A stretch of 64,000 nucleotides of DNA from Gammaproteobacteria bacterium (GTDB lineage Bacteria > Pseudomonadota > Gammaproteobacteria > JAADGQ01). The stretch is taken from positions 8,433-72,432 of the forward strand of contig WFXF01000002.1 in NCBI GenBank assembly GCA_015490755.1. The letters are read 5' to 3'. The number at the start of each line of letters is the position of its first letter. Positions within the stretch are counted from its first letter, which is position 1. The notes below the pieces were generated by a model. It searched no databases, was not told where the DNA came from, and was given only the letters and a program-made list of their open reading frames with translations. The translations under genes and the position numbers were made by a program. Below are positions 26,401-51,342 of the stretch, in pieces.

Positions 26401-27359
26401 GGTCTGTTTTTAGAGGTGCTTTTGCCAGTTTTAACTGAATCGAGCCGAATATGTTGCCCATTGAGCATGCCAGAGGCTGAAGTGATGAGTGATTTTTCCC
26501 AATGACTCCATAGTTTAAGGTTTATTTTCCCTGTGAGTGTGAGCTGTTGTTTGGGTGTTAAAATGTTCAACCACTCTTGCGGGTTGATATTTGTACCTTC
26601 AATGTAGACCTGGCCAGACCACTGTTCAGGTTTTGATAGATCACCTGTGCCATCAAGTGCAAAAGAGAGCTGCTCTCCCAGACTGTTAGGTAGTGAAATT
26701 TTTGCGGTGAGTTGATGGCGGCCATTAATATTGCGGGTTTCAATTTGTGCATCCTGAAAGGTGAGTTGATGATTGCCTGTTATCTGGTCTGTCCAGAGTA
26801 GCTTTTTAACTTCAATATTAATTTGCTCCTGACTGAGTAACCAGCGTAGGGTTTCTATTCCATGTTGGTCGTCTGTCGCTTTTTCAGGTGTGAAATTTAA
26901 CTCTTTAAGCAGTAACTCTCCCTGCTTGTTACGTTGCAAGTCTAATTGATCAATTGACAAGTCAAGTTGATCCAGGGTGATGTTCCAGCGATGCAGTGAT
27001 TCGAGCAGGTCTAAACCGATCAGGGCTTTTTCAAAATTGAGCAGGGTATGTTTTTCAGTGTTGTCTAGCAGTTCGAGTCCATGAAGCTCCAGGCGGGGGC
27101 CAAAGCGATACCAGCGGGCTTTGATTTCAGTGATACGCACAGGTTGTCCCAGTGCGTCACTGACGGCTGCTTCAATGCTCTGACGGTAAGCTCCAATTTC
27201 AGGCAAAACAACACGGGCTATACTGAGGAATACGGCCAGAATGATGATGAAAGCAACAAATGTATGGCGGCTTATGTGAAAACAGTTCCACAGGCAAAGT
27301 TTTATAAAGTGATCTTTGCCAGGCTTTTCATCTTTTTTACGATCTACTGCTTGAGCCAT
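23418..27359 (-). CDS. yhdP: YhdP-family AsmA-like protein (TIGR02099; envelope lipid transport)
   Basis: 1313 aa with an N-terminal TM anchor. Its size and its position next to rng match E. coli yhdP. Confidence 0.85.
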   Translation of the reverse strand: MAQAVDRKKDEKPGKDHFIKLCLWNCFHISRHTFVAFIIILAVFLSIARVVLPEIGAYRQSIEAAVSDALGQPVRITEIKARWYRFGPRLELHGLELLDNTEKHTLLNFEKALIGLDLLESLHRWNITLDQLDLSIDQLDLQRNKQGELLLKELNFTPEKATDDQHGIETLRWLLSQEQINIEVKKLLWTDQITGNHQLTFQDAQIETRNINGRHQLTAKISLPNSLGEQLSFALDGTGDLSKPEQWSGQVYIEGTNINPQEWLNILTPKQQLTLTGKINLKLWSHWEKSLITSASGMLNGQHIRLDSVKTGKSTSKNRPFLIDRLSGNFAWLRQQEGFILDIDQFILQRNRHTWPTSQFSIEKNSAQPSEHYTVRSSFIQIDDLRDLLLNSDLLDQKTTKLLKKLKPAGSFSDTYLQYQKANKESSETFSFQSKFRNLTTQFSHPIPGIKNLNGSITLNQQAGILDINSHTAKLDTGMLFREKLPVDLLNGRLHWGKSDIGWRIQSSDIVLKNSDITARGSMLLEFPSDHSPPFLEIFANFSDGDAKKTSRYLPVGIMPEGAVTWLDNSIIDGHVTHGSILFHGPLKGFPFRKNQGHFEVRFNAENATLDYLDHWPRLEALQLEAVFKGAGMEINATSGQLLNSQLRDVNALILDFKDNPLNITINGYIDGPLSDTLKFLKESPLKAQFGTFATSSEATGPSQLHLQLDLPIAPTGHKVNGEITFDNNTLLLAEGAVDLEQLQGMLVFSEQGIYSPGIQGKLLGMETELVIRTHHDNQKNNIIQFTADGIVDATRLSKIIHLPDNRFLKGKTDWHARLQLTSEKGKNKPPDVNLHVESLLKGLAITLPYPLKKQSIEPRTFILEMGLLGGALKEPVTLRYGEKINGIFLRDATQETVVWERGELRFGDDFAVLPNKPQLRIAGSLPKLSISDWLSVLPESTEQKSDINLPNSIDLQINSMEAFGQYFDQANVFVNRTKQAWQVDIDSTQLKGMISLPRQISLPIIMNLEHLELQSQKEREIQSPSPAADPKKIPSLQITSQQFIFNGNNFGTLSLTATSQKNGLHFEKITLDSSHTKITAQGDWLDINNQQKTAFEIDLKINQLPKTLALFDVVMPIKGGKGGVKINANWLGSPTDFDLTRFRGDLNMDIRDGQLTDIKPGAGRIVSLLSLQALPKRLALDFRDLFGKGFKFDKIIGDYKIDMGDAFTENLVMTSSAAEVKMIGRIGLADEDYNQQVLVTPKVSSILPVAGAIAAGSSWMGAGAAVLIFQKVFLPKLDTIASTEYRVTGSWDEPVVEKVSTYKIPEKKQADK

Positions 27360-27374
27360 TAGTCTCTTAAATAT

Positions 27375-28832
27375 TTACAACAAAATAATATCGAATTGCT
27401 CTTGGGTATAAGTGGCCTCAATTTGGAATTTTACTGGTTTGTTGATGAACTCTTCCAGTTCAGCAACACGGGTAGACTCTTCATCAATTAAGCGGTCAAC
27501 AACCTCAGGACAGGCAAGAACCAGATATTCCCGAGCATCAAATTGGCGGGCTTCACGCATAATTTCACGAAAAATATCATAGCAGGTGGTTTCGGCTGTT
27601 TTTACAGAGCCTCGACCATTACAGGTTGGACATGTCTCGCATAGAATGTGCTCCAGGCTTTCGCGGGTACGTTTGCGGGTCATCTCGACCAGCCCTAGTG
27701 CTGAAACGGTACTGATATTATATTTTGAATGGCTATTCGCCATGTGTCTTTCCAGTGCTTGCAGTACCTGCTGTTTATGTTTTTCGTCAGTCATATCAAT
27801 AAAATCGATGATGATGATACCGCCAAGGTTACGTAATCTGAGTTGTCGAGCAACCGCATGAGTCGCTTCAAGGTTGGTTTTAAAAATGGTTTCGCTGAGG
27901 TTTTTATGTCCGACAAATGCTCCCGTATTCACGTCAATAGTTGTCATGGCTTCTGTCTGGTCTATGACCAGATAACCACCGGACTTGAGTTGAACCTGGC
28001 GCTCAAGCGCTTTCTGGATTTCATCTTCAATGGAGTAGATGTCAAAGATGGGACGTTCACCTGGGTAATGTTGTACACGATCTGCTATTTCAGGTAGGAA
28101 AGTTTGGGCAAAATGAGCTGCACGCTGATGTGTTTCCCGTGAATCGATACGTATTCGATCAATATCCTGGTTGACCATGTCACGCATGGTGCGCATGGCG
28201 AGTGGAAAACCTTCGTAGACCATCATTCCGACTGTTGCATTTTGAATGCGCTCTTGTACTTTTTTCCATAATCGATTCAGGAAGTCCATATCAGCCAACA
28301 GATCTTTTGTATCGGATCCTTCAGCCGCTGTACGTACTATATAGCCATGTCTATTTTCTGTGGCTGCACTCTGAATAATTTTTTTAAGGCGTAATCGCTC
28401 CTTTTCATTCTCGATTTGGTGTGAGATGCCAATGTCTGTTGTATTGGGAATCAGTACAAGGTAGCGAGATGGAATAGATATGTGTGTGGTTAAACGTGCG
28501 CCTTTTGTTCCCAATGGGTCTTTGATGACCTGTACCAGTAACTCTTGACCGTCATGGAGCAGTGAGCGAATCTGTTTCTCATTATGTTCACTATCATTGC
28601 CAGGTAAAGTTCGTATATCAGACGCATGAAGAAAAGCAGAGCGTTCCAGGCCTATATCAATAAAAGCGGCCTGCATACCGGGTAAAATCCGGCACACTTT
28701 ACCGTGGTAAATATTGCTCACCAGGCCACGTTTGCTGCTACGCTCGATATGTACTTCCTGAAGCACACCATTTTCGACGATTGCGACTCGTGTCTCACTG
28801 GGGGTGACGTTAATTAATATCTCTTCACTCAT
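27375..28832 (-). CDS. rng: ribonuclease G
   Basis: An S1 domain plus the RNase E/G catalytic domain; 485 aa. Confidence 0.93.
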   Translation of the reverse strand: MSEEILINVTPSETRVAIVENGVLQEVHIERSSKRGLVSNIYHGKVCRILPGMQAAFIDIGLERSAFLHASDIRTLPGNDSEHNEKQIRSLLHDGQELLVQVIKDPLGTKGARLTTHISIPSRYLVLIPNTTDIGISHQIENEKERLRLKKIIQSAATENRHGYIVRTAAEGSDTKDLLADMDFLNRLWKKVQERIQNATVGMMVYEGFPLAMRTMRDMVNQDIDRIRIDSRETHQRAAHFAQTFLPEIADRVQHYPGERPIFDIYSIEDEIQKALERQVQLKSGGYLVIDQTEAMTTIDVNTGAFVGHKNLSETIFKTNLEATHAVARQLRLRNLGGIIIIDFIDMTDEKHKQQVLQALERHMANSHSKYNISTVSALGLVEMTRKRTRESLEHILCETCPTCNGRGSVKTAETTCYDIFREIMREARQFDAREYLVLACPEVVDRLIDEESTRVAELEEFINKPVKFQIEATYTQEQFDIILL

Positions 28833-28878
28833 GTTTTATATATCGGCCGCTATTGCACCTGCCTTGTTGAAAAATATT

Positions 28879-29349
28879 TTAGGCACGATGGTAGGGGTGG
28901 TTGGCCAGGATGCTCCAGGCACGGTAAATCTGTTCGGCAAGTAGTATGCGTACCAGCGGATGAGGCAGCGTGAGTGGTGAAAGTGACCAGGATTGCCGGG
29001 CACGGTTCAGGCAGGATGGGTCGAGCCCTTCTGGGCCACCAACAAGGAGTGCGATATTGCGCCCATCTTGCATCCATTGACTCATTTGAGATGAAAGCTT
29101 TTCTGTACTCCAGCTCTGGCCTTTAACATCCAGTGCAATGGTCAGGCAATCTTTGGGAAGTACAGCGAGCATACGTTCACCTTCTTGCTGCAAAATACGT
29201 TTAATATCGCTATTTTTACCACGCTTGCCAGCAGGAATTTCGTGGAGATTCAGTCTGCACTCGTGGGGGAGGCGTTTGGCGAACTCAGAGTAACCGTCAT
29301 TGACCCATCGAGGCATTTTTTGGCCGATTGCAACAAGGTGGATCTGCAT
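28879..29349 (-). CDS. rlmH: 23S rRNA (pseudouridine1915-N3)-methyltransferase RlmH
   Basis: 156-aa SPOUT methyltransferase; MQIHLVAIG… is the typical RlmH N-terminus. Confidence 0.92.
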   Translation of the reverse strand: MQIHLVAIGQKMPRWVNDGYSEFAKRLPHECRLNLHEIPAGKRGKNSDIKRILQQEGERMLAVLPKDCLTIALDVKGQSWSTEKLSSQMSQWMQDGRNIALLVGGPEGLDPSCLNRARQSWSLSPLTLPHPLVRILLAEQIYRAWSILANHPYHRA

Positions 29350-29352
29350 GAG

Positions 29353-29694
29353 CTAACTTGCTACTTCAGCATCGGTATTCCAAAGCTTTTCCAGTTGATA
29401 AAACTCGCGCATATCAGGTGTCATGATATGAATAACAACATCAGCGAGATCAACTAATATCCAGTTTCCGGGGTGCTGCCCTTCAACACCGATCGGCGTA
29501 CAGCCGTTTTCCTTGCTTTTTACGATAACACTATTGGCCAGCGCTTTGACCTGGCGGTCAGAGCTACCCGTGGCAATGATCATAAAGTCAGTGACACTGC
29601 TCATGCCGCGTACGTCGAATACTTGAATATTGATACCTTTTAAATCTTCCAGGGCTTCGAGAGAAATATTTTTTAATTGCTCAGGGCTGATCAT
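29353..29694 (-). CDS. rsfS: ribosomal silencing factor RsfS
   Basis: 113 aa of the Iojap/YbeB family, directly upstream of rlmH. Confidence 0.92.
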   Translation of the reverse strand: MISPEQLKNISLEALEDLKGINIQVFDVRGMSSVTDFMIIATGSSDRQVKALANSVIVKSKENGCTPIGVEGQHPGNWILVDLADVVIHIMTPDMREFYQLEKLWNTDAEVAS

Positions 29695-29740
29695 TACATT
29701 ACTTCTTGCATTTGATAGTCGCGCGAGTATAACAGATGTG

Positions 29741-29914
29741 CTACTTGTTTTGGGTCACGAGCGCACTACTTTCCAAAGCAGCAGACAAGTTTTGGGCCAT
29801 TTTTAGTTGCAGTCGTGCAGTTGACATGCTGTTGATGGTCAATAAAGAGAGCACCAGAAGCAACACAATGCTGACTATGAGCATACCGCCCAGCTGTTTT
29901 TCCCTATGTTTCAT
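29741..29914 (-). pseudogene. 58-codon remnant encoding only the N-terminal (PilX_N-like) segment of a type IV minor pilin
   Basis: The minus-strand translation is MKHREKQLGGMLIVSIVLLLVLSLLTINSMSTARLQLKMAQN…. This is a prepilin-like hydrophobic N-terminus followed by the PilX-type (S/T)xxLxxxMAxN motif. It is not in the ORF track because it is under 60 aa, and no globular domain follows. Confidence 0.45.
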
Positions 29915-29918
29915 TACA

Positions 29919-30923
29919 TTATTTTACCTGATCCGTTTGCTTGATTTTCTTCAAATATATAATCGATGCTCTTCGGTTCTCATCATCTGGATAGACACGA
30001 CCGGAGGTGAGGCAAGTAAAAATATGTTTGAAAACTTCGCCGGGAGTGCCTTTTTTGGTTCCAGAGCGAAAATAGGAGTGGCCTTTGGGGCGGTCATATG
30101 CACTATTAACATCATCGCAATCAACTCGATATACATTTCTTGGTGTTTTCTCTATATCTTCCGGGCCGGTATGACCTAACCTGCGAGATGCAATTTTATT
30201 TTTAAGGTTTGAAACTTTGCTTGCTCGAAGTGCCAGGTCATCCGATGCGTGATAAACAATAACATTACGTGAAGTATGGCAGATTAATTCTCCAGGCTCA
30301 CCTTTGTGAAGTGTTTCATTGACTACATCAGCAGCGACCATGAAGGTGTTTCTAAAAATCAGGGGCAACCCTTTGGGCAGGTCATATTTGCCCCAGACGG
30401 ATAATGTTTCTCGTAGAACACGGTTCCCCATAGAGTGAGCTAATAAGTTGACTCTTTTCAGGCAGGGTTCATCCTGAGGGTTATATTTTTCAGAATTACG
30501 CCATGCTATGAATTTTTCTAATACTCTTGCAAAAGAGAAGGCACTTTGGTCAGCAGCTTTTTGATCATCCCAATAATCCTTGATAATTCCTAAATCGTTG
30601 TCGCATGGCCAAACGATGGGGATGACTAGAATTTCACCCTTTTTAGTTTTTTCACAAAGGTTTTGAAATTCATTAACGGCAGAAAACACATCTTCAGGAA
30701 GGTTGGAAAACCCATGGATGTATATAAGAATCTGGCGACATTCCGACCCTTTTAGCCGACTTAAAAACTCAATACTGCCAATCTCTTTGTACTCTTTTTC
30801 AGATAAACGTTCACAGAAAAATACTGAATTGCTTGCTGCATTATTATTTAGGTCAAAATCAAAATTTCGTCCAACCCGGGTTCGAATGCTCTGTTTTGGG
30901 AATCGGTTTGTAATAAAAATCAT
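29919..30923 (-). CDS. alpha/beta-hydrolase fold protein (putative esterase/lipase, DUF900-like). It is an orphan and AT-rich.
   Basis: 334 aa with the nucleophile elbow AHSMG (GxSxG-type), IYIHGF upstream, and candidate Asp/His downstream. It sits where nadD would normally precede rsfS. Confidence 0.7.
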   Translation of the reverse strand: MIFITNRFPKQSIRTRVGRNFDFDLNNNAASNSVFFCERLSEKEYKEIGSIEFLSRLKGSECRQILIYIHGFSNLPEDVFSAVNEFQNLCEKTKKGEILVIPIVWPCDNDLGIIKDYWDDQKAADQSAFSFARVLEKFIAWRNSEKYNPQDEPCLKRVNLLAHSMGNRVLRETLSVWGKYDLPKGLPLIFRNTFMVAADVVNETLHKGEPGELICHTSRNVIVYHASDDLALRASKVSNLKNKIASRRLGHTGPEDIEKTPRNVYRVDCDDVNSAYDRPKGHSYFRSGTKKGTPGEVFKHIFTCLTSGRVYPDDENRRASIIYLKKIKQTDQVK

Positions 30924-30953
30924 TTTAATTTCTCTCCTTATAAAAATTAAGCT
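30824..30953. repeat. copy 1 of a 130-bp direct duplication (the first 33 codons of the hydrolase gene plus 30 bp upstream)
   Basis: Near-identical, with a single 1-nt indel, to 32124-32253. Confidence 0.9.
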
Positions 30954-31020
30954 CTGAACTTTGAACCGAAGTAAAAGAGCAAGTCAGAGTGTAGAAGTTA
31001 TTTCGTGAACGTTCCTAAGT

Positions 31021-31110
31021 GCCGTGTTAAGTGGTTTTGCTTTTCACTATAAGGATATCAGTTTGAAAAACGGTTTTGGTGACCCTAATAATCTGCATAT
31101 GTTTCTTTGA
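31021..31110 (+). pseudogene. fragment paralogous to the C-terminal part of the 185-aa membrane protein at 32905-33462
   Basis: About 80% nucleotide identity to 33247-33336. It translates to AVLSGFAFHYKDISLKNGFGDPNNLHMFL*, against AVLSGFAFHYEDINLAGGFGDPDNLHMLLG in the intact gene. Confidence 0.4.
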
Positions 31111-31120
31111 GTTTTGGATG

Positions 31121-31148
31121 TTGATTGTAATAAATCTAATGTTATAAT
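31121..31148 (+). promoter_or_regulatory. candidate sigma-70 promoter of the TA operon
   Basis: TTGATT, then a 16-nt spacer, then TATAAT, ending 38 nt upstream of the antitoxin ATG. An AAGAGG RBS lies at 31175-31180. Confidence 0.4.
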
Positions 31149-31186
31149 GTGTATCTAATGTATGCACAGAAAAAAGAGGTTATCTT

Positions 31187-31450
31187 ATGAGCAAAACCGC
31201 ATCTATCAATATGCGTGTTGAGCCTAGCCAGCACGAACTTTTAACAAAGGCATCAAGAATTCTACATAAAGATAGAAGTGCCTTTATTTTAGATATTGCC
31301 TGTCGAGAAGCAAAAAATGTACTGCTGGATCAACGTTTGTTTTTATTAGAAAGTGAGGCTTTTGAAAAGTTTGAGCAGGCTTTAAATACTCCACTGGCTG
31401 AAAACAGTAGACTAGAGCAACTTATGGCTGAGCCGTCACCGTGGGATTAA
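31187..31450 (+). CDS. DUF1778-family antitoxin of the TacA/AtaR/KacA type (RHH fold)
   Basis: 87 aa. INMRVEPSQHELLTKAS…SAFILD…A…VL… matches the DUF1778 consensus. It overlaps the toxin gene by 10 bp. Confidence 0.88.
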   Translation: MSKTASINMRVEPSQHELLTKASRILHKDRSAFILDIACREAKNVLLDQRLFLLESEAFEKFEQALNTPLAENSRLEQLMAEPSPWD

Positions 31451-31938
31451 TAAAAAAACCTGAATTACTTGATAGCAAACATAATGTTTTAGGCTTTAAC
31501 TGTGGTAATGAAACCTTAAATGATTGGTTAAAAAAGAAGGCTTTAAAAAATCAAAGGCAGGGAGCAAGTAAAGCCTTTGTTATTTGTGATGACATACAGG
31601 TTGTTGGTTACTACGCTTTGGCAACAGGCAGTGTGGAAAGAATAAATGCACCCAAGTCTTTAGCACGAAATATGCCGAACCCTATACCTGTTATTGTTCT
31701 TGGCAGGTTGGCGATTGACCAGCAGTTTCATGGTAAAAAACTTGGTTCAGCACTACTTAAAGATGCCATAAAACGTACTATTTATATATCTGAAAATGTA
31801 GGTGTAAAGGCTTTACTGGTGCATGCAATTTCAGAAGAAGCTAAAAGATTTTACCTTCACCACAATTTTATTGAATCACCTATAGAATCAATGACGTTAT
31901 TATTATCAATGAATAATAAGAAAAGACTTATAATCTAG
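31441..31938 (+). CDS. GNAT-family toxin (aminoacyl-tRNA-acetylating, TacT/AtaT/KacT-like)
   Basis: 165 aa with an acetyl-CoA binding segment (…QQFHGKKLGSALLKDAIKR…) and the conserved pairing with an upstream DUF1778 antitoxin. Confidence 0.86.
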   Translation: MGLIKKPELLDSKHNVLGFNCGNETLNDWLKKKALKNQRQGASKAFVICDDIQVVGYYALATGSVERINAPKSLARNMPNPIPVIVLGRLAIDQQFHGKKLGSALLKDAIKRTIYISENVGVKALLVHAISEEAKRFYLHHNFIESPIESMTLLLSMNNKKRLII

Positions 31939-32100
31939 GAGCCTGTCCGAGAATGAAAAGTCTACTGCGGAAAATCCATTTCGGCCATATTTGGTGTAAA
32001 TTTTCGTTAAATAGAACAACTATTCGCCTCAAATTTACACCAAATCTGCCATCAAAATGGCTTTCCCTCGCTACGACTTCCATTCTCGGACAGGCTCCTA
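31938..32100. repeat. 163-bp palindromic MITE-like element with 17-bp terminal inverted repeats (GAGCCTGTCCGAGAATG … CATTCTCGGACAGGCTC)
   Basis: Left and right TIRs, and internal inverted segments (ATTTGGTGTAAATTT / AAATTTACACCAAAT), are directly visible. It starts at the toxin stop codon. A second partial copy lies at 51147-51254. Confidence 0.7.
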
Positions 32101-32123
32101 GTCATGGTACTTTACCAATGAAC

Positions 32124-32253
32124 TGAATTGCTTTGCCGCATTATTATTTAGGTCAAAATCAAAATTGCGTCCAACTCGGGTTCGAATGCTCTGTTTTGGG
32201 AATCGGTTTGTAATAAAAATCATTTTAATTTCTCTCCTTATAAAAATTAAGCT
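32124..32253. repeat. copy 2 of the 130-bp direct duplication. It carries a truncated hydrolase start (46-codon relic ORF on the minus strand).
   Basis: Matches 30824-30953. Confidence 0.9.
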
Positions 32254-32307
32254 TCTTTTAAGCTTACATGGTTATGCTGTCACTCTTGGGTCTATAGAAA
32301 TAGAGTA

Positions 32308-32892
32308 ATGGTTATGAGTGAAAGTAGCACAAAACAAATTAAAGTATGGGATGGCCTTGTGCGCGGTTTTCACTGGCTGATGCTGCTCTCTTTTGTGGGC
32401 GCTTATATTACTAGCCAGTCAGGAATGCAGCAAACTCATATTTTGATTGGCTACTTCATCTGTTTATTACTGATTATTCGTACTGTGTGGGGCTTTATCG
32501 GAAGCAAACATGCGCGCTTCTCTGATTTTGTTGCTTTACCTTCACATGTATGGGCTTATCTGCAAGCCAGCTTTAGAAACAGTCCCCCTCATTATTTTGG
32601 TCATAATCCAGCTGGTGGCTGGATGGTGTTGGCTTTGATGGGGGCGCTTTTGTTGATGTCTGTGAGTGGAGTGATTCTTGTCTCTGTAATCGAATTTGAA
32701 GGGCCACTACTGAATTTATTGTCTGGTATGAGTGATCAGTGGGCCTATCGCTATGAAGAGCTGCATGAAGTGGCACTTAACATCTTGTGGTTGTTGATCG
32801 CAGGGCATTTAGTGGGTGTGGTCGTTGCATCAATTCAACATAAAGAAAATCTGCTACGTGCCATGGTCAGTGGGTATAAAATTATAAAATAG
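32308..32892 (+). CDS. cytochrome b561 family protein (CybB/YceJ-like, PF01292)
   Basis: 194 aa with four TM helices and conserved His (…FHWLMLL…, …GHLVGVV…) in the Ni/Fe-hydrogenase b-type cytochrome fold. Confidence 0.85.
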   Translation: MVMSESSTKQIKVWDGLVRGFHWLMLLSFVGAYITSQSGMQQTHILIGYFICLLLIIRTVWGFIGSKHARFSDFVALPSHVWAYLQASFRNSPPHYFGHNPAGGWMVLALMGALLLMSVSGVILVSVIEFEGPLLNLLSGMSDQWAYRYEELHEVALNILWLLIAGHLVGVVVASIQHKENLLRAMVSGYKIIK

Positions 32893-32904
32893 ATATGAGG
32901 GAAA

Positions 32905-33462
32905 ATGATGAAAAAGTATTTAGCGATCTGCTGCATATTATTTAGCTGGAATTGCTCTGCTCAAGCTCAGGAATACATGCCAGAACACTTTTTGGATTTG
33001 TCTGTTAAGCCGCAACCGTATACATCCTATATTCAATTAGCCCAGCTTGATACGGCAAATTTAAATGCTACCCATGAAGGCCATAATGAAGAGAAGAAAC
33101 CCCTGTTTAAATCCAGGCCTGTGACTTTGAATAAAGTGCATAAATATCTTGGTTACGCTTCAATGGTAAGTGCTGTATTGACAGGGTTGTCACCCAAAAC
33201 AGCCGGGGGTCCTCATGAGCTTTTTGGTACAGCCGCAGCCGCTTTTGGTGCGGCAGCTGTGTTAAGCGGTTTTGCTTTTCATTATGAAGATATCAATTTG
33301 GCGGGTGGTTTTGGCGACCCGGATAACTTGCATATGCTTCTTGGCATTTTAGGAACCGCAGGTTATGCCGTTGCTGTGAGTAGTGGTGAAGATGGTGGGC
33401 ATGGTGGTCCTGGTACTCTTGGTGCGCTCAGCATGGCTATGGCTATTAAATTAACCTGGTAG
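32905..33462 (+). CDS. hypothetical protein: signal peptide, a roughly 70-aa periplasmic segment, then Gly/Ala-rich TM helices flanked by His residues
   Basis: 185 aa with no recognisable family. Tightly coupled (a 12-bp gap) between the b561 gene and the c-type cytochromes. Confidence 0.6.
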   Translation: MMKKYLAICCILFSWNCSAQAQEYMPEHFLDLSVKPQPYTSYIQLAQLDTANLNATHEGHNEEKKPLFKSRPVTLNKVHKYLGYASMVSAVLTGLSPKTAGGPHELFGTAAAAFGAAAVLSGFAFHYEDINLAGGFGDPDNLHMLLGILGTAGYAVAVSSGEDGGHGGPGTLGALSMAMAIKLTW

Positions 33463-33472
33463 GAGCTTAAGA

Positions 33473-33865
33473 ATGAATAAAATATTAATTTTTGTGGTTG
33501 CAATACTCTTCTCATCAATTGCATTGGCGACAACCCCCATTGATCAACGTATGGCTGATTATAACCCTGATGGTAATCTGATATTTGATGCTAAACGTGG
33601 TGAAGATTTATGGAATCAGAAGCGTATGGTTGATGGCAAACAGCGTGATTGTAACGCTTGCCACGGTAAAGATCTCACACAGCCGGGTGAGCATGTAAAA
33701 AGTGGCAAAGTGATTAAGCCTATGGCCTATTCAGTCAATAAGGAGCGTTTCACTAAACTGAAAAAGGTCAAAAAGTGGTTCAAACGTAATTGTAAATGGA
33801 CTTATGGACGCGAGTGCACCACTCAAGAGAAAGGTGATTTGCTTAAATACTTATCTCAATTTTAA
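33473..33865 (+). CDS. monoheme c-type cytochrome (single CxxCH; SHP/DUF1924-like)
   Basis: A signal peptide and one CNACH haem-binding motif; 130 aa. Confidence 0.75.
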   Translation: MNKILIFVVAILFSSIALATTPIDQRMADYNPDGNLIFDAKRGEDLWNQKRMVDGKQRDCNACHGKDLTQPGEHVKSGKVIKPMAYSVNKERFTKLKKVKKWFKRNCKWTYGRECTTQEKGDLLKYLSQF

Positions 33866-33881
33866 ACAGGGCTGAAATATT

Positions 33882-34448
33882 ATGACTAAAAGACTAACAA
33901 TATTATCTATAGTGACTCTCTTGGGGCTGGGAATCAATACGTCGGTCTTTGCAGATGGTGAAAGTTTTTTTGATTGGTTGTTGACTACGGATTCGCGTAA
34001 CGAAATCAAACCCATGCAGAATGAGTTATATAATGAGGAGTGCAGCGACTGTCACTTTCCTTATCAGGCGGGCCTATTACCGGAAGCCTCTTGGAAAAAG
34101 CTGCTTGACCCTAAAGCACTGGAAGACCATTTTGGTGATAATGCTGAATTAGATGATGAAACAAGGAGTGCAATATTGGATGCTTTGATTGCGGATTCGG
34201 CCGATAAATCACGATATAAGCGTTCCAAAAAAATTATGTCATCACTGGGCGAAAATGAAGTGCCCATGCGTATTATTGATATTCCTTATATTAAGCGTAA
34301 GCATCATGAAATTTCTGATAAACTCATCACTGGAAATGACAAGGTGAAATCATTAAGTTTTTGCGATGCATGTCATCAAAAAGCAGATGAGGGAATCTAT
34401 GATGATGACAGCGTGGTAATTCCTGGGCATGGTAACTGGACGTGGTAA
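33882..34448 (+). CDS. diheme cytochrome c (DHC family)
   Basis: A signal peptide and two CxxCH motifs (CSDCHF and CDACHQ) about 105 aa apart, as in DHC. Confidence 0.8.
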   Translation: MTKRLTILSIVTLLGLGINTSVFADGESFFDWLLTTDSRNEIKPMQNELYNEECSDCHFPYQAGLLPEASWKKLLDPKALEDHFGDNAELDDETRSAILDALIADSADKSRYKRSKKIMSSLGENEVPMRIIDIPYIKRKHHEISDKLITGNDKVKSLSFCDACHQKADEGIYDDDSVVIPGHGNWTW

Positions 34449-34468
34449 TAACCGTGGAAAATTGAATC

Positions 34469-35131
34469 ATGCGTATACTTCTGGTTGAAGACGATCCGCA
34501 GTTGGGCGATGGCATTCGTACCGGTCTGCAACAGGTCAGTTATGCTGTAGATTGGTTACGTGATGGCTTGGGCGCTTTGCATAGTCTGGAAGTCGAAAAC
34601 TTTGATATGGTGATACTCGATCTGGGTTTGCCACGTATGGATGGTCTCAGTGTACTGGAGAAAATTCGTGCTTCCGGCAACGATGTACCCATATTGATTT
34701 TAACAGCGAGAGACACTGTTGCAGATCGTGTCAAAGGGCTTGACAGCGGTGCCGATGATTATTTGGCAAAACCATTTGATCTGGATGAGTTGTGCGCTCG
34801 AATAAGGGCATTGAGTCGTCGTCACAGTGGCCGGGCATCCTCATTAATCAAGTACCGTGATATCGTTTTGGATCCAATGGCTCACAGCCTCAATAAAAAC
34901 GGTGAAGAGATAAATCTATCAACCCGAGAATTTAAAATTCTACAAATTCTGTTTGAAAATATCGGTCGTGTCTTGTCCAGAGAGCGCATTGAAGAAAGCT
35001 TGTTCGGCTGGGATGATTCACTTGAAAGTAATGCCACCGAAGTTCATATTCATCATCTGCGCAAAAAATTGGGCAAAGATCTTATTGTGACTATTCGCGG
35101 TGTTGGTTACATGATCGCTAAAGAGAGTTGA
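34469..35131 (+). CDS. OmpR/PhoB-family DNA-binding response regulator
   Basis: A receiver domain (DD…D…K) plus a winged-helix trans_reg_C domain. Confidence 0.93.
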   Translation: MRILLVEDDPQLGDGIRTGLQQVSYAVDWLRDGLGALHSLEVENFDMVILDLGLPRMDGLSVLEKIRASGNDVPILILTARDTVADRVKGLDSGADDYLAKPFDLDELCARIRALSRRHSGRASSLIKYRDIVLDPMAHSLNKNGEEINLSTREFKILQILFENIGRVLSRERIEESLFGWDDSLESNATEVHIHHLRKKLGKDLIVTIRGVGYMIAKES

Positions 35132-36483
35132 TGAAACCCCGTTCAATCCGTCAAAACTTATTATTATTGGTATTGGGGGCAGTATTCATCTCTTGGGCAG
35201 TAGTTGCTCTGTTTGTCTATAAAAGTGCTAAACATGAAACTGAAGAGGTTTATGATGCACATCTGGTTCAAAGTGCCAAGTTGTTAGCCTCATTAATCAG
35301 GTATGAGCAGGAAAAGAGTCATCAGCTACAGGTTGAGATGGATGACTTTCTACCCATAGCACATAAATACGAATCTAAAATATCTTTTATTGTTTATTAT
35401 GGTGATGGAAAGGTAATGGTTCGTTCAGCATCGGCTCCAATACTGCCGGAGATTGAATCTTTCAATAATTTCAAACAGATCGAAGTTGATGGCGTCATTT
35501 GGTATACCTATAACCTTCGTGACCCCAAGACAAACTTACTTATTCAAACCGCTCAACGTTATGATGTCCGCCAGGAACTGATTAACTATATTAGTAGTAG
35601 CGTATTAGGTGTAATGCTGCTTTCTCTGCCGTTTATCGCAATTTTGATCTGGATTACTATTGGTCGAGGCCTGCGCCCATTGGTTCTGCTGGCAGATTCT
35701 ATATCGGGCCGATCAGTACAGCAGTTGGAGCCGATTACACTCGAAAGAGTGCCTACTGAAGCACAGCCTATTGTTTATGCTTTGAACTCTCTTTTTAATC
35801 GCTTGTCGCAAGCTTTTGAAAAAGAGCGACGCTTTACTGCGGATGCGGCTCATGAGTTGCGTACACCATTGTCAGGTATAAAAACCCAGGCACAGGTGGC
35901 TCTGCGATCAACAGAAAACAAGCAGCGACAGCAAGCGATAGTGCAAGTGATTACGGGCGTTGAACGTACAACCAAGCTGGTCAATCAGCTGTTAATTCTT
36001 GCCAGAGTTGATGCTGAGCAACATATCGTTAAAACTGAGCTGAACCTGAAACAGCTATGCGCGACCGTGATTAGCGAACAGATTGTTTCAGCTCTGAGTA
36101 AAAATATAGATATCAGTCTGGAAGGTGAGTCACTTGTAACCATAAATGGTAATGAAGAGTTGATACATATTTTGATTGCGAATGTAATCAATAATGCAAT
36201 ACGTTATACGCCCAGCGAAGGGCGTATTATTGTCAGTGTAACAAGTGATGCGCAGGGTATAGTGTTTGAGGTGAAAGATTCCGGTTTTGGTATATCTAAA
36301 TCATTGCAGACAGAAGTTTTTAATCGTTTTAAACGTGGTGAGCATTCAGATATTTCTGGTAGCGGATTGGGGTTATCAATAGTGTTGCGAATCTCCGAGC
36401 TACACCGTGCAAGAATTCAGCTGGGTGAAGGTTTGGATAATGCAGGGCTTAGTGTCAAAATCACTTTTGAACAAACTGCGTAA
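35128..36483 (+). CDS. sensor histidine kinase (two TM, HAMP, HisKA, HATPase_c)
   Basis: H-box AHELRTPL and G1/G2 boxes (GSGLGLSIV). Overlaps the regulator gene by 4 bp. Confidence 0.92.
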   Translation: MMKPRSIRQNLLLLVLGAVFISWAVVALFVYKSAKHETEEVYDAHLVQSAKLLASLIRYEQEKSHQLQVEMDDFLPIAHKYESKISFIVYYGDGKVMVRSASAPILPEIESFNNFKQIEVDGVIWYTYNLRDPKTNLLIQTAQRYDVRQELINYISSSVLGVMLLSLPFIAILIWITIGRGLRPLVLLADSISGRSVQQLEPITLERVPTEAQPIVYALNSLFNRLSQAFEKERRFTADAAHELRTPLSGIKTQAQVALRSTENKQRQQAIVQVITGVERTTKLVNQLLILARVDAEQHIVKTELNLKQLCATVISEQIVSALSKNIDISLEGESLVTINGNEELIHILIANVINNAIRYTPSEGRIIVSVTSDAQGIVFEVKDSGFGISKSLQTEVFNRFKRGEHSDISGSGLGLSIVLRISELHRARIQLGEGLDNAGLSVKITFEQTA

Positions 36484-51146: not shown

Positions 51147-51254
51147 TTTTTCGGTATTTTGAGGCGAATAGTTGTTCTATTTAACGAAAATTTACACCAA
51201 ATCTGCCTCAAAATGGCTTTCCCTCGCTACGACTTCCATTCTCGGACAGCCTCC
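51147..51254. repeat. second, partial copy of the MITE-like element (right half and TIR)
   Basis: …TTTACACCAAATCTGCC[T]CAAAATGGCTTTCCCTCGCTACGACTTCCATTCTCGGACAG[C]CTCC is almost identical to 32048-32100. The centre is inverted relative to copy 1. Confidence 0.65.
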
Positions 51255-51342
51255 TGGCGGGCGAAGCTCGGCAGGCAGTGTAAACGTCATCATAATCATA
51301 AAATAATCGGCAGGGACCTGTTTCTGAGACCGCCGCTCAACT

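Follow-up and report, generated by a model that had tools for sequence, protein, structure and literature searches.

A predicted DUF900 hydrolase conserved as a single gene across bacterial phyla, beside a toxin-antitoxin cassette that is a later insertion

Does a hydrolase whose gene adjoins a toxin-antitoxin (TA) pair take part in bacterial conflict, or do the two genes merely share a location? The question is raised by a stretch of 64,000 nucleotides from a gammaproteobacterium (assembly GCA_015490755.1, contig WFXF01000002.1, positions 8,433 to 72,432; hereafter the window), which encodes a 334-residue alpha/beta hydrolase. From the sequence of this region, a first-pass annotation had described the protein as an AT-rich orphan without operon partners, whose start is duplicated and which could be an effector- or toxin-like phospholipase, a component of a defence or addiction unit formed with the adjacent TA system or, alternatively, a housekeeping esterase acquired by horizontal transfer. 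Our analysis has identified the protein as a further member of the known family DUF900/COG4782, located within one tightly conserved clade. We put it at slightly better than an even chance that the hydrolase is a catalytically competent cytoplasmic esterase or lipase of the phospholipase A or lysophospholipase type, which is encoded by a solo gene and serves a physiological role.

The hydrolase gene is intact and its ATG start is preceded by a strong ribosome-binding site (AAGGAG). Its assignment to DUF900 (PF05990), a family that had already been named as a candidate for this lipase- or esterase-type serine hydrolase, is based on a match of 56.1 bits compared to a gathering threshold of 20.5 (E=4.6e-15, residues 53-258), which is the sole significant one in Pfam. 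The Pfam family Lipase (PF00151) does not match the protein even at E<=10, scans of NCBIfam and PHROG returned no match, the same was found for PADLOC at E<=1, and sequence searches of the PDB, either by phmmer with the single sequence or with a profile, yielded nothing significant. The description as an orphan has to be abandoned in light of 2,122 homologues found at E<=1e-3 in a search of 5.8 billion clusters, the best 120 of which are 74-94% identical, and an exhaustive search of representatives at 50% identity has provided 919 clusters at E<=1e-3 and 142 at E<=1e-30. Two longer homologues, one fused to a CitMHS transporter (P0127) and the other to pentapeptide repeats (P0154), were considered as a functional clue and rejected, since they look like rare or chimeric gene calls.

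The translation contains both motifs of the initial description, the upstream IYIHGF region as part of ILIYIHGFSN (His70-Gly71) and the AHSMG serine as part of LLAHSMGNRV (Ser164). The conservation of these and other positions was followed in two alignments, one of 58 diverse family members reaching down to 31% identity and one of 85 homologues of the clade taken from genomes, up to 84 of which cover a given catalytic site. H70, G71, W105, G166, D229, G250 and G253 are invariant among the 58 diverse members, and the conservation of S164, H163, H282, D199, C37, C269 and R248 reaches at least 90%, while H70, G71, S164, D199, D229, H282, C37, C107 and C269 are kept in all members of the clade that cover them. 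As read from its sequence, the hydrolase has a Ser-Asp-His triad, a nucleophile elbow of the GxSxG type and an HG oxyanion motif. The probable catalytic acid is Asp229, with Asp199, which follows the preceding strand and is equally kept in 84 of 84 sequences, as an alternative.

The protein begins with MIFITNRFPKQSIRTR, which is devoid of a hydrophobic core, and its residues 2-7 form a core beta-strand in a model predicted by AlphaFold2 (AF2), where they show a predicted local distance difference test score (pLDDT) of 98. Since the N-terminus contains no hydrophobic stretch and contributes to a strand of the core, the protein carries no cleavable signal peptide, as had been proposed. The entire alpha/beta-hydrolase model is of high confidence (pLDDT 94.8, predicted template modelling score 0.93) and comprises about 10 strands with an extension at the N-terminus (2-7, 30-41 and 44-47), a long helix (113-143) and a helix (230-240) following the strand 218-225. 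In the published description of DUF900 (PMC11878206), the fold has an extended sheet of about 11 strands, helix B is long and strand beta7 is followed by an additional helix, and our model shares the extended sheet, the long helix and the extra helix after the strand preceding the Asp. In contrast to the description of DUF900 as mainly alpha-proteobacterial, with a studied example that contains an N-terminal membrane or lipoprotein signal (PMC11878206), the proteins of the clade investigated here lack such a signal, are about 325 residues long and are found in many phyla at 65-94% identity.

Among solved structures, those nearest to the AF2 model are hornet-venom phospholipase A1 (PLA1) and pancreatic-type lipases. 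A Foldseek search of the PDB found only weak, generic matches to alpha/beta hydrolases, and a search of the viral models in BFVD placed ORF19 proteins of aviadenoviruses on top and lipase- or phospholipase-like proteins of herpesviruses further down. The structural signal for a likeness to lipases thus appears consistent but not strong. The enzymes of the vespid venom PLA1 and pancreatic lipase family (4QNN, PLRP2, lipoprotein lipase) are only 13-14% identical and, unlike the hydrolase, they come from eukaryotes, are secreted and contain disulfides and lids. Another counterpart is found in cinquedea, a secreted bactericidal phospholipase A of the archaeon Haloferax larsenii, whose archaeal homologues contain a DUF900 domain in 69% of the cases (bioRxiv 10.64898/2026.06.10.730825). 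By its description, cinquedea shares an xHSxG elbow and a triad of similar spacing (163/231/275 compared to 164/229/282 in the hydrolase) and it is likewise transcribed as a single-gene unit, although it is secreted by means of a 30-residue signal peptide that is absent in the hydrolase. Our literature searches on DUF900, PF05990 and COG4782 have retrieved no functional study other than this preprint.

The history of the gene in its lineage was reconstructed from related contigs, which are L001 (with L002 containing the same sequence), L095 from a hydrothermal-vent metagenome, whose hydrolase falls into the same 90% cluster, and the more distant L003. When the 14 genes of the neighbourhood are compared to L001, the hydrolase shows the highest conservation, with an amino acid identity of 94.2%, a ratio of nonsynonymous to synonymous substitution rates (dN/dS) of 0.033 and a dS of 0.82, whereas the 13 neighbouring genes show identities of 70-90.5%, dN/dS values of 0.045-0.115 and dS values of 0.55-1.5. 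The identities of individual neighbours in L001 are 90.3% for rsfS, 89.7% for rlmH, 89.3% for rng (whose product in the window is the RNase G HEB63715.1) and 81.8% for yhdP, and the hydrolase is again ahead in L003 with 88.0% compared to 86.0% for rng, 79.6% for rsfS, 78.7% for rlmH and 62.9% for yhdP. The hydrolase is thus inherited vertically in this lineage together with rsfS, rlmH, rng and yhdP, under purifying selection that is stronger than theirs. Because the gene is syntenic and its dS lies within the range of its neighbours, it dates back at least to the ancestor that these genomes share and is not a recent acquisition. Such strong constraint on an accessory enzyme in turn implies a precise and important activity.

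The gene had also been described as AT-rich, and with a GC content of 0.400 compared to 0.437 in the window and 0.43-0.52 in neighbouring genes, the hydrolase is indeed richer in AT than its surroundings. However, this offset is modest and, since the family lies on average 4.8 points below its own flanks at 90 loci, it is a family property, while the truly AT-rich segment of the locus is the TA insert with a GC content of 0.364.

Beyond this lineage, relatives that are 65-84% identical are contained in isolates and long contigs of Gamma-, Beta- and Alphaproteobacteria, of Desulfobacterota (Desulfuromusa, Desulfobacter curvatus and Electrothrix) and of Campylobacterota, Verrucomicrobiota, Nitrospira and Chlorobium, and on shorter contigs only of Planctomycetota and Acidobacteriota. 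Together with those of the lineage, homologues of 65-94% identity cover at least six phyla, as represented by genomes of isolates or by long contigs. The GC content of the gene follows that of its host (r=0.90), with values at third codon positions that span 0.28-0.95, and a minority of loci with a clear mismatch between gene and host suggests recent transfer. The family thus appears to have spread horizontally long ago and more than once, and to have resided in its hosts for a long time since. The proposal of a housekeeping esterase acquired horizontally comes closer to these results than the others in that the family has moved between phyla, but in the lineage of the window the gene is old and syntenic and its confident match is to a family without a known housekeeping role. 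No copy of the family was detected in 50,697 phage records, whereas close full-length copies with 51-64% identity are contained in four plasmid records of two distinct replicons. In one of them, the 72-kb plasmid pDSHI05 of Dinoroseobacter shibae (L091, 7001-10377), a copy with 64% identity (DSHI_RS21110) is convergent with a hypothetical gene, which is followed by a gene of the glycerophosphodiester phosphodiesterase family.

The surroundings of the gene were compared at 84 non-redundant loci, where clustering of ORFs within +/-4 kb has revealed no shared neighbour past the synteny within a genus and where neither a TA system nor another conserved partner adjoins the gene. The 122 immediate neighbours belong to 147 Pfam families, none of which occurs more than five times, they are located on either strand with gaps that mostly exceed 50 nt, and the Pfam-annotated contexts differ completely between lineages. 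The hydrolase is thus a single-gene unit without a conserved partner. Sites for Pho, LexA, Fur, sigma-54, FadR, CRP and FNR are not enriched in 85 upstream regions compared to controls, and the flanking DNA is conserved within genera only, with neither ends of mobile elements nor a leader RNA that could be defined.

In our preferred interpretation, the hydrolase would cleave an acyl ester, most likely in a phospholipase A- or lysophospholipase-type deacylation of a glycerolipid. The reaction is predicted to proceed at the cytoplasmic face of the membrane and it may serve a niche-dependent physiological role, such as the turnover or remodelling of lipids, and not conflict. The assignment of a glycerolipid as substrate is the most likely one, as judged from neighbours in fold space and from analogy to the one characterised relative. 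Several observations weigh against this interpretation. Two Asp residues (199 or 229) are candidates for the partner of His282, the invariant polar and charged residues R7, Q87, Y117, D120, R248, H251 and Y284 would also fit a specific polar substrate in place of a bulk lipid, and the active site of DUF900 was described as buried (PMC11878206). The patchy occurrence across phyla is unlike that of a true housekeeping gene, and defence models do match a handful of the immediate neighbours. In Desulfuromusa (L004), the homologue is part of an island with an ISL3 transposase and genes of the bacteriophage exclusion (BREX) system, and in three genomes of Neptunomonas (L023, L028 and L070) and in D. 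curvatus (L040), it lies immediately upstream of the genes for sheath and tube of a contractile injection system (L023 4220-10414, L070 6001-12196, L040 6001-12737). Since the injection systems of Neptunomonas and D. curvatus are only 27-47% identical (33-47% for the sheath and 27% for the tube), these juxtapositions have arisen independently in the two lineages.

Alternatively, the substrate of the hydrolase might be a specific ester, thioester or amide that is small and polar or not a lipid, such as a metabolite, a cofactor or an acylated protein, and its likeness to PLA1 would then reflect only the shared ancestry of the fold. The buried active site would be in line with such a substrate, and so would the conservation of at least 90% in 154 of 322 columns, many of them charged or polar positions, among the 85 sequences of the clade from many phyla. 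In contrast, the sole characterised enzyme of the DUF900 type is a phospholipase A (bioRxiv 10.64898/2026.06.10.730825), searches of two structure libraries rank PLA1, pancreatic-type lipases and viral lipase-like proteins first, and the plasmid-borne copy in D. shibae is separated by one hypothetical gene from a glycerophosphodiester phosphodiesterase, an enzyme that acts downstream of phospholipid deacylation. We regard a non-lipid substrate as a serious alternative, albeit the less likely one.

A further alternative is a role in conflict, either as a latent cytoplasmic phospholipase that acts as a single-gene effector of abortive infection or programmed lysis, as a payload of contractile injection systems or a factor for their release, or as a toxin, all of which we consider improbable. 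The movement of the family across phyla, its patchy distribution and the described neighbourhoods in Desulfuromusa, Neptunomonas and D. curvatus would be compatible with this role, as would the ability of cinquedea to kill bacteria (bioRxiv 10.64898/2026.06.10.730825). However, no immunity-like or sensor partner is conserved, the scans of PADLOC, PHROG and the phage records were all negative, and the matches to defence models are confined to a handful of the 122 immediate neighbours and do not recur. The protein lacks a signal peptide and no injection system is encoded in the window, nor does one adjoin the gene at about 80 other loci, and a search of the literature for lipases linked to contractile injection systems has retrieved nothing relevant. 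With its low dN/dS, the hydrolase also evolves more slowly than the ribosome-associated neighbours and rng, and its GC content is ameliorated to the host in most genomes, unlike in fast-evolving defence or effector genes, and the adjoining TA pair is a later insertion, as described below. The lipase effectors Tle1-Tle5 of type VI secretion systems (T6SS) match the hydrolase with a score that only reaches the generic background, and they are accompanied by an immunity gene and by T6SS, VgrG or PAAR components, none of which is found nearby, neither in the window nor at the 84 loci. The initial proposal of an effector- or toxin-like phospholipase is thus not borne out. A related idea would view the members of the clade as self-contained and normally latent cytoplasmic phospholipases for programmed membrane disruption, which either release injection particles or kill the cell upon infection. 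If true, it would cover the spread as a single gene, the placement at injection loci in two lineages and the extreme constraint, the latter by a need for tight auto-inhibition, but we would give it a slightly smaller chance still.

It remains to explain the TA pair at 31187-31938 and the duplicated start, both of which had been recognised correctly. The two copies of the repeat (30833-30953 and 32133-32253) are 98% identical over 121 nt, and when allowing for a 1-nt indel the homology extends to about position 32119. In L001/L002 and L095, the genes follow the order yhdP, rng, rlmH, rsfS, a small ORF, the hydrolase and a divergent cytochrome b561, with nothing between the last two, whereas in L003, with its 88% identical hydrolase, the side from the hydrolase to yhdP is kept and other genes are located upstream, again without TA. 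The window aligns to L001 in two parts (27003-30953 with 11922-7970, and 32133-35999 with 8091-4221), and a single segment of L001 of about 122 nt matches both copies of the repeat, which were told apart in a four-way DNA alignment. Because L001/L002 and L095 carry the same locus without TA, the TacAT pair, the element resembling a miniature inverted-repeat transposable element (MITE) and the gene fragment that accompany it are a later insertion, which has created the duplication of the start.

The insertion is a mosaic of a 67-nt segment, a gene relic, the TacA/GNAT cassette and the MITE-like palindrome. The relic resembles the C-terminal part of ORF 32905-33462. The presence of such a sequence within the insertion suggests that the inserted DNA originated from the version of the same locus in a related genome. 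A simple tandem duplication as sole cause was rejected, since the fragment and the resident gene of the 185-residue protein share only 78% identity, compared to 98% in the repeat. Instead, the observed layout might have resulted from integration by a single crossover of circular DNA carrying a short homologous segment. The TacAT cassette (31114-31937) is 87% identical at the nucleotide level to cassettes in unrelated contexts (L092-L094). As a portable segment of 826 nt that includes 73 nt upstream, it recurs in three other contigs, the edges of its homology coincide exactly with the borders of the gene relic and the MITE-like element, and in L092 it adjoins AbiE, HipA and a second TacA gene. 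The ends of the MITE-like element read CTAGGAGCCTGTCCGAGAATG and enclose an inner 29-nt inverted repeat, and a partial second copy at 51158-51255, about 19 kb away, matches over 69 nt at 97% and over 99 nt at 87%. No transposase source was identified for this element, and a scan of Rfam gave only sub-threshold chance matches, which are located on its hairpin.

That the hydrolase and TacAT would work together in this genome as a single unit of addiction or defence, as had been considered, was suggested by their adjacency and by the repeated 5' end of the hydrolase, which flanks the TA pair on either side. We find this barely conceivable, given that the TA pair is missing at the locus in L001/L002 and L095 and is not found beside the gene in L003 and at 84 other loci, that the cassette at 87% identity occurs elsewhere without the hydrolase and that the TA pair and the hydrolase are divergently transcribed. 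The insertion has presumably separated the intact copy of the hydrolase from its native promoter region, and its expression would now have to start from the insert or by read-through beginning at the relic copy. A promoter scan around the gene has not found more sites than in shuffled sequence. The relic copy of the 5' end (32098-32253, minus strand) keeps the native intergenic region and its ribosome-binding site, and the 41-residue peptide could still be made. Transcription from this copy would run antisense through the MITE-like element and tacT/tacA towards the intact gene. The coordinates of the described features are listed in Table 1.

Table 1. Positions in the window of the hydrolase gene, its predicted catalytic residues and the features of the adjoining insertion.
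Feature	Position	Strand	Remarks
DUF900 alpha/beta hydrolase gene, intact	29919..30923	-	ORF of 334 aa, ATG start; Pfam PF05990; homologues up to 94% identical; AF2 model
His70-Gly71 codons, predicted HG oxyanion-hole motif in IYIHGF	30714..30719	-	invariant in 58 diverse and 85 close homologues
Ser164 codon, predicted nucleophile in AHSMG	30432..30434	-	Ser in 84/84 covering clade members and >=90% of the wider family
Asp229 codon, probable catalytic acid after strand 218-225	30237..30239	-	invariant in the 58-member alignment (A1); 84/84 in the clade
His282 codon, predicted catalytic base in GHSYF	30078..30080	-	>=90% of A1; 84/84 in the clade
57-aa ORF, one hydrophobic helix	29741..29914	-	starts 4 nt past the hydrolase stop; lineage-specific, outside the conserved unit of the family
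Repeat copy 1, codons 1-30 and 30 nt upstream with ribosome-binding site, intact gene	30833..30953		~32 nt of native upstream sequence left
Mosaic insertion, 1,179 nt	30954..32132		missing in the related contigs L001 and L095
Gene relic of 95 nt, resembling ORF 32905-33462	31021..31115	+	78% identical to 33256-33350; 82% to L001 6874-6961
tacA-type antitoxin gene, 87 aa	31187..31450	+	Pfam TacA1, E=1.8e-21; belongs to the insertion, not to the hydrolase unit
GNAT (TacT-type) toxin gene, 165 aa	31441..31938	+	Pfam Acetyltransf_7/10/1; 90% cluster with 15 members from elsewhere
MITE-like palindrome, 167 nt	31935..32101		perfect 21-bp ends starting with CTAG
Truncated 41-aa ORF from repeat copy 2	32098..32223	-	first 30 aa as in the hydrolase, then frameshift
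Repeat copy 2, relic of the hydrolase 5' end	32119..32253		contiguous with native intergenic region and cytochrome b561, as in empty-site relatives

The flanks of the locus contain two further features. Downstream of the hydrolase lie the 57-residue ORF and then rsfS and rlmH, all in the orientation of the hydrolase. The statement that the gene lacks operon partners had overlooked this conserved small ORF, which is 70% identical at the amino acid level in L001 and 59% in L003, with a dN/dS of 0.107, and which is annotated as a gene in L095 and L003, in the latter with a weak match to PilX_N. On the opposite side, the region 32308-36483 encodes cytochrome b561, the 185-residue protein with its hydrophobic N-terminus, a DUF1924 protein, a dihaem cytochrome c (DHC), and a response regulator with a histidine kinase. 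This cluster is conserved with L001 and L095 and resembles a small module for electron transfer in the periplasm that has a two-component control of its own.

Collectively, the main result of our analysis is a correction. The hydrolase is neither an orphan nor a recent acquisition and it is not tied to the TA system, and there is thus no reason to follow it up as a novel system of defence or addiction. The locus provides a before-and-after example for the arrival of a TA cassette and a MITE-like element in the 5' end of a gene, which has survived via a duplication of about 135 nt. What emerges instead is a solo hydrolase of about 325 residues that Gammaproteobacteria share with Desulfobacterota, Campylobacterota, Verrucomicrobiota and Nitrospira at 65-94% identity, and whose activity is amenable to investigation in the cultivable hosts Dinoroseobacter shibae, Neptunomonas japonica, Marinobacter nauticus and Desulfobacter curvatus.

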